From NCBI GenBank assembly GCA_038065475.1, contig JBBTQY010000003.1, positions 14,464 to 78,463 of the forward strand: a DNA stretch of 64,000 bases. The letters are read 5' to 3'. The notes beneath the pieces were generated by a model. The model made no database searches. It had not been told where the DNA came from and saw only the letters and a program-made list of their open reading frames with translations. Origin of the DNA: Patescibacteria group bacterium (GTDB taxonomy: Bacteria > Patescibacteriota > Minisyncoccia > Ryanbacterales > GWA2-47-10b). This document shows, piece by piece, positions 59,076 through 64,000 of the stretch (position 1 is the stretch's first letter; the number at the start of each line of letters is the position of its first letter). The position numbers and the translations under genes are program-made.

Positions 59076-59767
59076 GACCTATCAAAAAGATTGAAATAGA
59101 AGATTGCACCAATCGCCTTAAAGCCGTCACGCCAGGTAATTTTTTTACCTTCACGATAAGTTCGCCCATAGTAGTTAATCGGCACTTCATAGATACGCCA
59201 ACCATTGCGAGCTACACGAGCAACAAGCTCTGGTTCGATGCCAAATCTTTGAGATCTTAGTTTTGGAGCGATGATATCAATAACCTCTTTTTTAAATACC
59301 TTGTATCCTGTCTCCATATCGGAAAGATTAAGGTTCGTAAAAATATTGGAGAGCAATGTGAGCATGGTATTACCAAAGTAATGCCAAAAATAAAATACAC
59401 GCTGGTAATCCCCACGAAAACGAGAACCAAATACCACATCTGCCTTTCCCTCTTGAATCGGCCTTAGGAGCGCAGGGTAATCAGTCGGATCATATTCAAA
59501 ATCAGCATCTTGTATAAGGACAATATCACCCGTCGTCTCCAAAAATCCACGTTTGAGTGCCGCGCCCTTGCCCGCGTTCTTTTCAAGCAAAATGATTTTG
59601 ATATCGCTCATTTCTTTGAGAACGTCGCGCGTGCCATCGGTCGATCCATCATCAACAAGAATAATTTCCTTTTCTATACCGTCGAGCGGTACGGCAAAAA
59701 CGCGCGAGACAACCTCGCGCACCGTCTTTTTTTCATTGTATACCGGAATAACTATCGAGAGTTTCAT
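59072..59767 (-). CDS. GT2 polyprenyl-phosphate sugar synthase (ArnC/Dpm1-like)
   Basis: [20 protein letters not shown]...[17 protein letters not shown]...[11 protein letters not shown] motifs. Confidence 0.85.
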
Positions 59768-59844: not shown

Positions 59845-60951
59845 TTACTCTGCACCCATCAGCCCTCGCAAAAACAAAACAATACCTTCCGCACGCTTAT
59901 CCCAACTATATCGCTGTACTCGATCCCTTCCCTTTTGCGCGCGGCGAGCGCTCTCTTCGGGATTTGTTAAAACTTTTTTTATAACACGCTCAAATTCTTC
60001 TACACGATAATCTTGAACGAAAAATAATTCTTCGTCTCCTGCAACCTCACGAATTGATGGAAGGTCGGTTGCTACCGTAGGCGTACCTGATGCAAGATAC
60101 TCCATGATTTTAATGGGGGAAAAATATTTTTGCGCGCGCTCGCTATTCTTTTCATACGGTGCAATAAGCACGTCAGCGGCAAACATATACTTATTAATCT
60201 GAAGGACAGAAATAGTGGAAAATCGCCAGAAAAAATCATCTCTCTCTTCTCGCTCTGCACCAAATTCCACAAGTACAGTGCCGGGCAACGTTTTATTAAT
60301 ACGGCCGGATAACTCAGCCAAAAGAGCAGTCCCTTTCCATGCCTGCAGACTGCCCGCGTAAAGAATAATTTTTTTGTCTTCGGGCAAGTTGAGCTCCGCT
60401 CGAACTTCTGCTCGTGTTTTCTCCGGGACCAAAAGTGGATCGAATCCGTTGGGCGCAACTAAAAAACGATTTGCACTAATACCATAAGTGTTTGCGATAG
60501 CTTCTACTTTTGCCTTATTGGTCGAGACAATACCGCGTGCAGAGCGAAACACGCGACTATATATCATGGAAGGCATCTTACCAAGCGAGTGGCATTCAAA
60601 AAAGAAATTGTCTCGAAACCGTGGCGAGAGAAAAGAAAGAAGAAACGCTAGGAGAAGATCGCGAGTATAAAAAATTGTCTCGGGCGGCGCTTCGCGCACG
60701 ATACGGCGAAACGTAAGTGCACGAAAGAAGCTTTGCGGCCAAAGTATACCGAATAATTTTGGTAGCTCTTTTATAGAAAGATCGCCTGTGACGCCATAAC
60801 TCTCCAATACTTTTCTTTTCTTCTCGCCCATGCTTCCTACCCAGAGAGTAGCATCGGCGTGACGCGAAAAGGCCTCCGTCATCTTCATGACCTGGAGGCG
60901 GTTGGCGAGCGTTGAAGGATATGTGAGCGTTGTAAGATACCAGAGTGTCAT
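59845..60951 (-). CDS. Glycosyltransferase family 4 (GT-B, group 1)
   Basis: KKIILYAGSLQAWKG...ADVLIAPYEKNSERAQKYFSPIKIMEYLASGTPTVATD is the EX7E region. Confidence 0.8.
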   Translation of the reverse strand: MTLWYLTTLTYPSTLANRLQVMKMTEAFSRHADATLWVGSMGEKKRKVLESYGVTGDLSIKELPKLFGILWPQSFFRALTFRRIVREAPPETIFYTRDLLLAFLLSFLSPRFRDNFFFECHSLGKMPSMIYSRVFRSARGIVSTNKAKVEAIANTYGISANRFLVAPNGFDPLLVPEKTRAEVRAELNLPEDKKIILYAGSLQAWKGTALLAELSGRINKTLPGTVLVEFGAEREERDDFFWRFSTISVLQINKYMFAADVLIAPYEKNSERAQKYFSPIKIMEYLASGTPTVATDLPSIREVAGDEELFFVQDYRVEEFERVIKKVLTNPEESARRAQKGRDRVQRYSWDKRAEGIVLFLRGLMGAE

Positions 60952-60991
60952 CGTTGAAAATAAAGGCTTTTTTAAGTATTATTATGCTATC

Positions 60992-62422
60992 ATGGATCGT
61001 GAGAAAGTTCATTCACTAGGCTGCAATATCGACGACGATCGCACGCGCGATATTTTGGCGTCTATCACCGCATTGCCGTCGCTTGCGCGCCCCGCCGTCT
61101 GCCTCCCCGACCTTCACTTAAAAGAACGCACGGAAGCCCCCTCTTCGTTTGCGGCTGCCACACGCGACACCATCGTGCCCGAACTTACCGCGCCGTCAGT
61201 CGGCTGTGGCATGGGTGCACTCGTCACCTCGCTCTCGGTCAAAGACATTGACCATACTTTTTTTGAAGCATTTTTTCATGAGCTGCGCGCAAATCTTGGC
61301 CCGCGCTATGGGCACTTCAAAAATATTCTTTTGTGGCTCGGTATTATCGGCCGCCCCCATAAACCCTACGATCTGACCGAAGAAGAATTTGCCGATATTA
61401 TCAAACACGGTGCCCAAGCTGCAGTCGAGCGCTATAACCTACCCTCTGAATTTCTTGACCGTGTTGAATATCGTGGCTCGGTATATTCAAAAGAAGAACA
61501 AGAATCGCTCAATCTCAAAAACATCCTCCCGCGCATTTCATGGCGATCGGGCCGACATGACCTCGGCTACGGTTTTAAGGGAAATCATTTCTTGGAGATT
61601 CAGTATGTCGAGGAAATGATTGATATTAAAACTGCGCGTGATTGGGGTCTGAAAGAAGGATCGATCGTCATCATGTACCATGGTGGAGGAGGTGCGGTCT
61701 CTTATCACATTGGCCGTTACTTTGGTAACCGCAAGAAAAATACGGCAATACAAAAATTTGTACTCTTCTTTTTCAAAGCACTCTTTCATTTTGGCAATCC
61801 GAAAAAATGGAAGTATGCCGCAAAGCGCTTTCGCTACTATTTCCGCCCGAAACCCTTTATGGAAATTCCGCTTGATACGCCTGAGGGTGATCGCCTCTGG
61901 CAAGCGACTAAGGCATCGCTCAACTATAGCTACGGCTTTCGGATGGCGATCGCACGCCGCATCATTGATACGCTCTCAAAAGTATCTCCCAAAAAAGGTG
62001 TGACATCTTCGCTCATTGTCGATTCAACTCACAATGCCATCATGAAAGAAAAAGTAGGCAACGAAGAATTGGTAGTACACCGCCATACCGCAAATCGCGC
62101 ATTTCCTGACAAACCTTTGATTGTCTCAGGATTTAATACCACTAACTCTTATATTGCCGTTGGTCTTCCCAACGCAGAAGAGCATCTTTTTGCATCTGAT
62201 CACGGCGCGGGTATCACTATCAAAAAAATGCAAAATGAAGGTCTCTCGCGCCCTCACCCCAAAAACTTTGTCACCCACATCTACCAGACACGTTCGCCGT
62301 TTAAACGCGTAGTGGAACACATCACCAACGAAGGCATTGATTATGTAATGGAGACGCTCGAACGTGAAGGTATCGCGCGGCCCGTCGCCCGCCTTCGTCC
62401 ATTGGCTGTATTCAAAGGATAA
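60992..62422 (+). CDS. RtcB-family (3'-phosphate RNA ligase-like) protein
   Basis: Putative RtcB-like motifs in order: CLPDLH, VGCGMG (the Cys-containing DIGCG-like loop), GNHFLEIQ, MYHGGGGAVSYH, DSTHNAI, HRHTANRAF, SDHGAG. Start at the ATG 40 bp from the divergent GT4 gene. Confidence 0.6.
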   Translation: MDREKVHSLGCNIDDDRTRDILASITALPSLARPAVCLPDLHLKERTEAPSSFAAATRDTIVPELTAPSVGCGMGALVTSLSVKDIDHTFFEAFFHELRANLGPRYGHFKNILLWLGIIGRPHKPYDLTEEEFADIIKHGAQAAVERYNLPSEFLDRVEYRGSVYSKEEQESLNLKNILPRISWRSGRHDLGYGFKGNHFLEIQYVEEMIDIKTARDWGLKEGSIVIMYHGGGGAVSYHIGRYFGNRKKNTAIQKFVLFFFKALFHFGNPKKWKYAAKRFRYYFRPKPFMEIPLDTPEGDRLWQATKASLNYSYGFRMAIARRIIDTLSKVSPKKGVTSSLIVDSTHNAIMKEKVGNEELVVHRHTANRAFPDKPLIVSGFNTTNSYIAVGLPNAEEHLFASDHGAGITIKKMQNEGLSRPHPKNFVTHIYQTRSPFKRVVEHITNEGIDYVMETLEREGIARPVARLRPLAVFKG

Positions 62423-62429
62423 AAAATAA

Positions 62430-62470
62430 AAAAATGCCCCCACACCGCGGTGATGTGAGGGCACCCGTCA
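62430..62470 (-). terminator. Putative intrinsic terminator after the high-GC orphan gene
   Basis: Imperfect GC hairpin (TGCCC...GGGCA with an inner CAC/GTG pairing) followed on the minus strand by TTTTTTTATTTTTT. Confidence 0.4.
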
Positions 62471-62510
62471 GAGGCATATCGGGTAAAACCTTTTGTTGTA
62501 TCGCCGGAGA

Positions 62511-63083
62511 CTAGGCTGCGAGCCGCGCCGCAAGATCGTCGCCAAGCCAGTCGCGGTCGAGCCAGAAGTGGTATCCGCGCCACCTGCCGTTGAAGCAGAG
62601 ATAACGGACGTACAGGTGGCCATCCAAGCAGCGGTAGATGGTACCCCAAAAAAAGACGGCCTTCCCCTTCTCCTTCCACTCCTCGGGGATGAGGTGCTGG
62701 TTGGCGAGCAGGTAGTCCAACACGTTCGCATTGAGCACGGGTACCGAGGCGAGCTCGCGGCGGAGCTTGTTGCCCTCGATGACCTTGCCGTTCTGCTGGT
62801 TCGGTGAGAGATGAAGCGAGACCTTTGTGGGGTCCCACTCGAACTGGCCGTACCTCCGATGCTCCTCGACCCTCCATCCGTCGGGGATGAATGGGTTCGC
62901 ATCGCAGTCGATGGTGTGGCGGATGGGCGTCACCTCTCCGTGACCACGAATGATGGAGAGCACCTGTGCGAGGATATCGCCCTCGCACATCTTCTTGATG
63001 TCCGCGTTGGTGTAACCAGCGCGGCGGCACGCGAGTTTGAACTCGTTGGCCTGTCCTACATCGAGCATAAGCTCTGCGCTCAC
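62511..63083 (-). CDS. Hypothetical protein (190 aa), strongly GC-rich, lying between two RtcB-like paralogs
   Basis: GTG start with AAAGGAG 6 nt upstream. ATG alternative at 63068. I recognise no domain. The overlapping 327-aa track ORF is an Arg/Pro-rich alternate-frame artefact. Confidence 0.5.
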   Translation of the reverse strand: MSAELMLDVGQANEFKLACRRAGYTNADIKKMCEGDILAQVLSIIRGHGEVTPIRHTIDCDANPFIPDGWRVEEHRRYGQFEWDPTKVSLHLSPNQQNGKVIEGNKLRRELASVPVLNANVLDYLLANQHLIPEEWKEKGKAVFFWGTIYRCLDGHLYVRYLCFNGRWRGYHFWLDRDWLGDDLAARLAA

Positions 63084-63220
63084 AAAGAGCTCCTTTTGTC
63101 TGGCAACAGCGTTCGTCCGAACAATGTTGCGGGTTTATTTCCAGAAATATAATACTATATATATTTTTATATGTCAATGGCAGACGCGGCAATAAAAAAT
63201 CGTTATAATACAATAACTTT

Positions 63221-64000
63221 ATGAATTTCTCTTGCGACAATATTGAACACCCAGAAATTCGCGGCAAGCTCGCGCGTATTTCGCGCGTCGGCAGCATGGC
63301 GCGATCACCTGTGTGTCTCCCCAATATTCACCCCAAGGCTGGCCTTGAATCGCCTCCTCAATTTGTCGCGGCAACCCGCGACACTATCGTACCGCAGCTG
63401 ACGGCACCCGCCATGAACTGCGGTATGAGTGTATTTCGCACCACACTCAAAAAAGAAGATTTCTCGCCCGAATTTCTCAAAGATTTTGCCGCGCGACTCC
63501 GCTCAGGTGTCCTCCCCCGTGAAAGCAGATTCAAAGGATTTTTAGCGTGGCTCGGCACTTATGAGAAACCATCAACCAAATATGATCTTTCGCGTGAAGA
63601 GTTACGCGAGTTCTTTTTAGAGGGCGCGCCTGCCGCCGCACGCAAGTATGGCATAGCGCCTGCCGAACTTGAACACATGGAATACGGCGGTAACATCATC
63701 AGCGAATCCGAGAAAAAAGATATTGATTTGAGTGACCTCGTCCCCCGCTCATCATGGACCAACGGACGCCATGAGATGGGTTATAATTTCGGCGGCAATC
63801 ATTTCTTGGAACTCCACACGGTAGAAAAAATCGACAACCAAGAAATGGCATCCGCTTGGAATATTTCCGAAGGAGATATTTTAATGTTCTACCACGGCGG
63901 TGGGGGTCACGCGACCTATCACCTCGGCCGCTATTTTGGCCGCAGAAAAAAGAACACACCTGCGGAAAAACTCGCACTCTTTTTCTTGAAACTGATGTTC
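63221..64000 (+). CDS. Second RtcB-family paralog, partial (continues beyond the window end)
   Basis: Hand translation gives MNFSCDNIEHPEIRGKLARI...CLPNIH...ATRDTIVPQLTAPAMNCGMS...GGNHFLELH...FYHGGGGHATYHLGRYFGRRKKNT. It is collinear with the 60992 protein at roughly 45-50% identity. TATAAT lies 13 nt upstream. Confidence 0.6.
   Translation, partial: MNFSCDNIEHPEIRGKLARISRVGSMARSPVCLPNIHPKAGLESPPQFVAATRDTIVPQLTAPAMNCGMSVFRTTLKKEDFSPEFLKDFAARLRSGVLPRESRFKGFLAWLGTYEKPSTKYDLSREELREFFLEGAPAAARKYGIAPAELEHMEYGGNIISESEKKDIDLSDLVPRSSWTNGRHEMGYNFGGNHFLELHTVEKIDNQEMASAWNISEGDILMFYHGGGGHATYHLGRYFGRRKKNTPAEKLALFFLKLMF

Follow-up and report, generated by a model that had tools for sequence, protein, structure and literature searches.

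RtcB is regarded as a nucleic-acid ligase only, acting in RNA repair and in the splicing of tRNAs and of XBP1/HAC1. Two genes of this family, here called A and B, lie at the end of a 64,000-nt stretch of DNA (the window) from a Patescibacteria group bacterium (contig JBBTQY010000003.1), beside a glycosyltransferase gene and separated from each other by a gene for a 190-amino-acid (aa) protein, X190. With canonical RtcB (P. horikoshii PH1602, hereafter Pho RtcB; E. coli RtcB; human RTCB) the window proteins share the Pfam family, the fold, the Cys/His metal ligands, the Asn-His-Phe segment and the guanine pocket, and A also has the His of the HGAG motif. They differ from it in belonging to a clade in which (i) Asp95 is replaced by Ser or Ala and the PDxHx motif is altered, (ii) the RNA contacts are lost, (iii) archease is absent from among the neighboring genes and (iv) the genes occur in glycan operons or as fusions; B, moreover, is predicted from its orthologs to have no nucleophilic His.

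The RtcB2–PrfH module and the RtcB paralogs of M. xanthus indicate that a bacterial genome can hold several specialized RtcB paralogs. Those proteins are still nucleic-acid enzymes. The window proteins score well below the cut-offs of the PrfH-linked models (TIGR03073, 62.7 bits with a cut-off of 271.8; NF007153, 92.7 bits with a cut-off of 407), and no prfH-like neighbor was found in any locus examined. Against the curated NCBIfam RtcB models, too, both A and B fall far short of the cut-off in every case. We propose that A and B probably do something other than RNA repair, and we think it somewhat more probable than the contrary that they act in lipid-linked or surface glycan biosynthesis and not on RNA. 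Our literature search, which covered the comparative RNA-repair literature only in part, found nothing linking RtcB to glycan synthesis. The two genes are as follows.

60992-62422, plus strand: RtcB-like A, 476 aa, a member of the KES clade defined below (Pfam RtcB 173 bits, alignment to Pho RtcB, structural model)
63221-64000, plus strand: RtcB-like B, first 260 codons, the gene being cut by the window end (Pfam RtcB 75.7 bits)

Copy A and the KES clade of RtcB-like proteins

A preliminary description of this DNA, made from the letters and open reading frames, placed both plus-strand genes in the RtcB family. That assignment is borne out by the Pfam RtcB scores listed above (PF01139, gathering cut-off 27 bits), and the two peptides it quoted, AATRDTIVPELTAPSVGCGMG and AATRDTIVPQLTAPAMNCGMS, are both found in the translations. 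The closest matches of A come from Patescibacteria and Parcubacteria, including Candidatus Ryanbacteria. An AlphaFold2 (AF2) model of A, with a predicted local distance difference test (pLDDT) score of 94.4, has the RtcB fold and matches both Pho and human RtcB; Foldseek paired it with 4dwq at an E-value of 3e-28 and a template-modeling (TM) score of 0.70, and its top 16 matches in the PDB are all RtcB proteins.

For site numbering, A was aligned to the Pho RtcB structures 1uc2 and 4dwr. The Mn1 ligands Cys98, His234 and His329 and the Mn2 ligand His203 correspond to Cys72, His230, His347 and His199 of A, which also retains Asn198 and Phe200 on either side of His199, Glu202, Asn348 next to His347, the segment His404-Gly-Ala-Gly, and Lys475. 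The nucleophilic His404 (E. coli His337) is thus intact within the HGAG loop. The motif set read earlier from the sequence holds in the structural alignment for the Cys/His ligands and, in A, the nucleophile. Both copies depart from canonical RtcB at Asp95 (E. coli Asp75), a Mn2 ligand (PMC8051266; PMC10630183), where A has Ser69 and B has Ala. Five further sites differ: Pho Arg190, Gln194, Arg238, Arg408 and Arg412 are Ser186, Asp190, Gly234, Ile408 and Lys412 in A. In RtcB the 5′-OH strand is bound through its phosphates by Arg190, Gln194 and Arg238 (PMC8051266). Judged by its sequence, A is a non-canonical RtcB. Its ratio of nonsynonymous to synonymous substitution rates (dN/dS) is 0.03–0.04.

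These differences are general to a clade that we name KES for its conserved Lys44, Glu48 and Ser69. We tabulated the sites in 45 canonical RtcBs and in 23 KES proteins taken from a metagenome scan. In the canonical set Asp95, Arg190, Arg238, Arg408 and Arg412 are invariant (45/45) and Gln194 nearly so (44/45). Among the KES proteins, Asp95 has become Ser in 22 of 23 and Arg238 has become Gly in 21 of 23; neither Arg190 nor Gln194 is kept in any (0/23), and Arg408 and Arg412 survive in 3/23 and 8/23, respectively. Cys98, Asn202, His203, Phe204, Glu206, His234, His329 and His404 are present in all 23, and the canonical motif PDxHxGYGxP reads PDxHxKxxxE. Because the residues of the nucleotidyl core are kept and the contacts to the 5′-OH strand are lost, we conclude that the clade retains the nucleotidyl-transfer core of RtcB and drops its known polynucleotide contacts.

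The KES clade is monophyletic with respect to canonical RtcB in a neighbor-joining tree (bootstrap 100/100). A profile of the clade collects 476 clusters (50% identity) at E ≤ 1e-30, a set that may still include canonical RtcBs; the 150 top-scoring of these clusters are diverse, and nearly all carry non-canonical active-site signatures. There is thus a sizeable and conserved RtcB branch that lacks the RNA contacts and, as described below, is operonic or fused with polysaccharide machinery.

Other non-canonical RtcB-like lineages have independently replaced the nucleophilic His, by Gln, Phe, Tyr or Ala (our sequences P0333, P0342, P0377, P0382, P0421, L044, L047 and P0340). In some of the His-less proteins, among them the flippase-fused P0340, the bridging Cys98 is also replaced by Asp. 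One canonical RtcB (L085) is 994 aa long and probably contains an intein.

Copy B and its pairing with copy A

The 3′ end of B, like the genes beyond the window end, was inferred from two relatives, L001 and L010; the part of B within the window is 82% identical to L001 B at the DNA level. This part has equivalents of Cys98, His203 and His234, with Asn for Pho Asp65. Full-length orthologs of 465–477 aa retain the metal ligands, His329 included, and the guanine-pocket residues, and have Pro-Ser in place of His404-Gly405 within an invariant SATPSA segment. Of 11 sequences assigned to B, 10 have Pro-Ser; the other, L058, is an unrelated aberrant sequence. The ordered set of RtcB motifs that the preliminary description read in both proteins is therefore complete in A; for B the HN and H..GAG motifs lie beyond the window, and the full-length orthologs have HN but PSA[AG] where HGAG would be. 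Replacement of the nucleophilic His by Ala in E. coli RtcB abolishes both formation of the adduct with guanosine monophosphate (GMP) and sealing (PMC3458531). By orthology, with Pro for His, B is predicted to be unable to become guanylylated.

B has a dN/dS of 0.05–0.07 and is therefore not a pseudogene; the invariant SATPSA segment likewise excludes that interpretation. Strong purifying selection on B also disposes of an arrangement in which both copies are standard tRNA-splicing ligases and one has decayed. B sequences are monophyletic and sister to the A clade of Parcubacteria (neighbor-joining bootstrap 100/100), in keeping with the old duplication proposed earlier, and their branching order roughly mirrors that of A. 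On the tree, the duplication took place inside Parcubacteria, to which B is confined. It is found in only six of the species representatives of the Genome Taxonomy Database (GTDB), with A just upstream in five of them, and further A+B pairs are present in L001, L017, L021 and L023. Altogether A adjoins B in 9 of 10 distinct B loci, despite spacers that range from 0 to 2,270 bp. A second, non-orthologous pair occurs in L105; its first copy lacks the His (His to Phe), its second is complete, and a CDP-OH_P_transf gene comes after them.

The pairing of an enzyme with a pseudoenzyme paralog is a general concept, and A and B resemble such pairs in that a complete copy lies beside a conserved copy without the nucleophile, in two non-orthologous lineages. 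They differ from them in that B keeps an apparently intact metal site, and a physical association of A with B would be a putative one. Such a natural pair of an active and a His-less paralog offers material for the study of the later steps of the RtcB reaction.

Glycan gene context, fusions and a possible chemistry

Upstream of A the window contains the following features.

59845-60951, minus strand: glycosyltransferase family 4 (GT4) gene (open reading frame; Glycos_transf_1/Glyco_trans_1_4 in the syntenic L001 gene; local GT4 hidden Markov model (HMM), E 2.8e-116)
60954-60982, plus strand: promoter-like site TTGAAA-17-TATTAT, 10/12, in the 40-bp spacer before A (consensus scan only)

As described previously, A begins 40 bp from the divergent GT4 gene, and the same divergent arrangement of GT4 and A is seen in L011, L013, L014, L015 and L017. 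The pair was also thought to lie at the edge of a glycan locus, which the relatives contradict. Upstream of the pair they have genes for a methyltransferase, a GT2 (family 2) glycosyltransferase, a DegT aminotransferase, an epimerase, two GT4 enzymes, PMT_2, GT2 and GT4, and glycan genes continue downstream with CDP-OH_P_transf, three GT4 genes, Wzy_C/TPR and more GT4 genes. The core order of divergent GT4, A, B and CDP-OH_P_transf persists at only 50–60% protein identity. Elsewhere in the locus, L001 has an extra Methyltransf_21 gene (L001:7297-8046) between PMT_2 and GT2 that is absent from the window at about 59076-59100, another insertion or deletion among the glycan genes.

To compare neighborhoods, we counted neighbors with local HMMs at 45 canonical RtcB loci, 21 loci with a single KES gene and 11 A+B loci:

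Archease: canonical 27/45; KES single 0/21; A+B 0/11
GT4 glycosyltransferase: canonical 1/45; KES single 10/21; A+B 10/11
CDP-OH_P_transf: canonical 0/45; KES single 3/21; A+B 10/11
Wzx-type flippase: canonical 0/45; KES single 10/21; A+B 0/11
P-loop kinase-like protein directly upstream: canonical 0/45; KES single 12/21; A+B 0/11

RtcA and RtcR, like archease, are found at none of the 32 clade loci, and archease is absent from the window as a whole. The RNA-repair or anti-toxin module suggested in the preliminary description finds no support in these counts, in the lost RNA-contact residues or in PADLOC, which gave no matches for A, B or X190; the evidence favors its other suggestion, recruitment for a different chemistry.

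Glycan genes of several kinds accompany the single KES genes. In L016 (Parcubacteria) the RtcB gene abuts CDP-OH_P_transf within a glycosyltransferase locus. In L019 (Thermoflexia) a same-strand operon runs from a methyltransferase, a radical SAM protein, an epimerase, GT2 and a P-loop kinase-like protein to RtcB, a Wzx-type flippase, UbiA and GGR. A group of high-GC metagenome loci combines DegT, GT4, a P-loop protein, RtcB, a 150-aa protein of unknown function, an APH-family kinase and a flippase. Two fusions join RtcB-like domains to such partners: in P0340 (996 aa) the domain comes after a Wzx flippase, in an operon with Bac_transf, Wzy_C, GT4 and CDP-OH_P_transf (GCA_036003365.1, DASYSL010000001.1), and in P0315 (885 aa) it comes after a P-loop protein. 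In Chloroflexota and high-GC metagenome loci, P-loop proteins of about 350 aa, annotated as hypothetical, are encoded immediately before the RtcB-like gene (L019:4959-6008; L025:759-1901; P0241-P0299); the family shows weak similarity to HPr kinase and AAA_33 and has precomputed hits to PF27840, ScmC.

The CDP-OH_P_transf partners (PF01066) are known here from the relatives, the gene lying beyond the window end, and score 30.8–37.5 bits against a cut-off of 22. Compared with the signature D-x2-D-G-x2-A-R...G-x3-D-x3-D, all nine have every residue except the last Asp, which is His (9/9), giving the variant LDxVDGExAR-x7-G-x3-D-x3-H (L001:12916-13749; L010, L011, L012, L015, L016, L017, L024 and L103).

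From this gene context we infer a glycan substrate. One chemistry that would fit can be borrowed from canonical RtcB, in which a His–GMP adduct leads to a phosphate capped with guanosine through a pyrophosphate and then to a phosphodiester. A would react with guanosine triphosphate (GTP) to give a His404–GMP adduct; kinase-like neighbors would make a phosphomonoester substrate; and A would hand GMP to the phosphomonoester on a non-nucleic-acid substrate, which might be a phospho-sugar, a phospho-polyol or a phospho-lipid-linked glycan. The product would be a pyrophosphate-activated intermediate linked to guanosine diphosphate (GDP), the analog of RNA-3′pp5′G, and attack on it by a hydroxyl would form a phosphodiester in the surface glycan. 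The final transfer could be performed by the RtcB-like proteins themselves or by a downstream variant membrane enzyme of the CDP-alcohol phosphotransferase type. B would be a non-guanylylating partner, either a subunit that binds substrate or acceptor or the enzyme of the final transfer; any contact between A and B is suggested by the pairing of their genes. Given the Wzx fusion, the reaction would be placed at the cytoplasmic face of the membrane, on a lipid-linked unit.

The same logic is familiar from pairs of a cytidylyltransferase and a CDP-alcohol phosphotransferase, such as IPCT/DIPPS and the CDP-polyol enzymes of teichoic-acid synthesis, in which a phospho-alcohol is converted to a nucleoside diphosphate (NDP)-alcohol and then to a phosphodiester on a hydroxyl. 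The likeness extends to the CDP-OH_P_transf gene directly after the RtcB-like genes in the relatives. The activator here would differ, being RtcB-like with a covalent His–GMP and GTP as donor, and the phosphotransferase has His for the last Asp of its signature. The KES enzymes may thus represent a third and previously undescribed route to glycan phosphodiesters, in which a phosphomonoester is activated by a His–GMP enzyme, the GDP-linked intermediate is joined to a hydroxyl beside Wzx, and a His-less paralog or a variant CDP-alcohol phosphotransferase finishes the reaction. We put this route forward tentatively and consider it less likely than not; the specific GMP-activation chemistry is less likely than a role in a glycan pathway as such.

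Were such a role correct, GMP activation of a phosphate by RtcB would extend beyond nucleic acids into glycobiology, and a function would be at hand for those genes of Patescibacteria, Chloroflexota and high-GC metagenome contigs that carry the automatic annotation 'tRNA-splicing ligase'. Caution would also be called for in reading a capacity for RNA repair or intron splicing from that annotation. A role in glycan synthesis would surprise RtcB specialists, and it is directly testable with recombinant protein.

Several points weigh against a glycan role. The HMMs for glycan genes were built from the KES loci and are biased toward finding glycan genes there. The loci are also phylogenetically dependent and amount to perhaps five or six lineages, not 32 samples. 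As Patescibacteria commonly have large glycan loci, part of the adjacency could be inherited synteny. In L012, B occurs with no A within 6 kb. Co-transcription of A and B is not universal, as opposite-strand genes intervene in several genomes, and the case for an obligate complex is correspondingly weaker. Ser at the Asp95 position might still permit a two-metal site and ordinary RtcB chemistry, and if these genomes hold no canonical RtcB, archease or intron-containing tRNA or rRNA genes, A could still be the sole RNA ligase available to the cell.

Among the alternatives, the one that fares best, and that we nevertheless consider unlikely, takes A as the ligase of the cell for tRNA or rRNA exons or for damage repair, in a genome reduced by streamlining, and B as a degenerate regulatory or RNA-binding paralog, with the glycan neighborhood reduced to inherited synteny. 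It accommodates the clear Pfam RtcB match, the fold shared with Pho and human RtcB and the intact nucleotidyl-transfer residues of A, His nucleophile included, and Patescibacteria do carry insertions in rRNA genes. It must also account for the wholesale loss in KES proteins of Arg190 and Gln194, and the loss in most of them of Arg238, Arg408 and Arg412, all invariant or nearly so in canonical RtcBs; for the absence of archease from the 32 loci, against its presence at 27 of 45 canonical ones; for the recurrence of a glycan context, made up of other sets of genes, in Chloroflexota and in other high-GC metagenome loci; and for the proteins in which an RtcB-like domain is joined to a flippase or to a P-loop protein. 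Also against it, no tRNA or other Rfam RNA was found in the window.

A second alternative keeps the lost polynucleotide contacts and the intact His–GMP machinery, which suit any non-RNA acceptor, and makes A a GTP-dependent nucleotidyltransferase acting on something other than a glycan, for example by guanylylating a small molecule or a protein, or by regulating the locus, with B as an inactive decoy. The several independent His-less lineages would be in line with this, and we rate it as improbable: the tight operon position among glycosyltransferases, flippase and phosphotransferases speaks against it, the Wzx fusion suggests that the substrate is a lipid-linked glycan at the membrane, and the kinase-like and CDP-alcohol phosphotransferase-like neighbors suit phosphodiester chemistry.

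X190 and the cassette between A and B

The region between the two RtcB-like genes contains the following features.

62423-63220, no strand: 798-bp cassette, exactly between the A stop codon and the B start codon (comparison with L001 and L010)
62432-62466, minus strand: intrinsic-terminator-like hairpin with a T run that ends the 190-aa gene; 15 pairs, 7 of them G-C, tail TTTTATTTTT
62511-63083, minus strand: X190, the 190-aa gene, with a GTG start
63090-63095, minus strand: Shine–Dalgarno sequence AAGGAG of X190, six bases before the GTG (sequence read)
63149-63177, minus strand: promoter-like site TTGACA-17-TATTAT, 11/12, ahead of X190 (consensus scan)

L001 and L010, with A proteins 96% and 93% identical to that of the window, have overlapping A stop and B start codons (TAATG) and no counterpart of window positions 62423-63220. 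In a blastn comparison of the window with L001, 60984-62422 and 63225-64000 align and the sequence between them is unmatched. The middle gene is therefore foreign at this site, as had been proposed. Its reading frame also proved real and GC-rich, with a GTG start coupled to the Shine–Dalgarno sequence and a terminator on its own strand. The G+C content is 54.9% for the cassette and 60.7% for X190, against 47.3% for the window, and the G+C content at third codon positions (GC3) is 0.82 in X190 and 0.49 in A. By comparison of the loci, X190 lies in a self-contained cassette of promoter, gene and terminator that was inserted at the A–B junction of this lineage and uncoupled the two genes. Identification of the cassette as an insertion sequence or transposon was rejected: a search for terminal inverted repeats and a target-site duplication around it gave nothing convincing, and there is no match, hence no transposase, in Pfam, PHROGs or NCBIfam.

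After the insertion, B in the window has no Shine–Dalgarno sequence; a TATAAT box is present at 63204-63209, 11 bases before the ATG, and a weaker promoter-like site is present at 63138-63165. The AT-rich end of the cassette may now drive expression of B, whose mRNA would possibly be nearly leaderless.

X190 is not the orphan it was taken for. It has 1,742 homologs at E ≤ 1e-3, mostly 57–73% identical, in lineages that include Magasanikbacteria, Moranbacteria, Liptonbacteria and Paceibacteria, and it is identical to a protein from an NCBI Patescibacteria metagenome-assembled genome. Elsewhere the family occurs as a lone gene amid housekeeping genes (gyrB; mgsA–leuS), with no RtcB nearby. DNA similarity among copies is confined to the coding sequence, and the G+C content of the gene exceeds that of its host in each case compared (59/40% and 56/48% in the copies at L003:4001-4576 and L006:4001-4591, and 61/47% in the window, with GC3 of up to 0.82). 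The persistence of this high G+C content across many classes of Patescibacteria suggests that the gene either moves horizontally often or is constrained as a nucleotide sequence.

The AF2 model of X190 (pLDDT 93.4) has three helices in its N-terminal part and an alpha/beta domain at the C-terminus. It has no Foldseek match below E 0.1 in the PDB or BFVD; the sequence has no match in Pfam, NCBIfam, PHROGs or PADLOC, and the family profile has none among PDB sequences. The conserved His75 and Asn118 brought a homing endonuclease to mind, a guess that found no support and was dropped. On IMG/VR viral contigs (L101:304-2009; L102:1218-1724), proteins of 140–168 aa contain the C-terminal domain of the X190 family; one contig has three tandem copies of the gene, and each set lies just upstream of a DNA methyltransferase-like gene with a DPPY motif.

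It is highly improbable that the three genes form a conflict module in which the RtcB copies repair toxin-cut RNA and X190 is the toxin, antitoxin or sensor: RtcB is tied to ribotoxin repair elsewhere, as in RtcB2–PrfH, and the viral tandem copies beside a DNA methylase hint at a conflict role for the X190 family itself, but the module is already contradicted by the absence of X190 from L001, L010 and all other A–B loci examined, by the solitary family members beside gyrB or leuS, by the want of PADLOC matches and by the low scores of A and B against the PrfH-linked RtcB models.

The A–B spacers of the relatives reach about 2,270 bp, and other genomes have different, unrelated inserts there. 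From the comparison of loci, X190 is unrelated cargo with no functional part in the A–B pair. Next to one family member, the gene for GyrB (L003:628-3699) contains an intein (Intein_splicing domain). The spacer itself is a hotspot for unrelated insertions (L013:5036-5862, L014:5506-5919, L015:3721-5946 and L021:6431-7590), the contents of which include opposite-strand genes for conserved zinc-ribbon membrane proteins of about 135 aa (MNINYQPESCPQCG...) and genes for a PaaX/Cas2-like regulator and a small helix-turn-helix protein.

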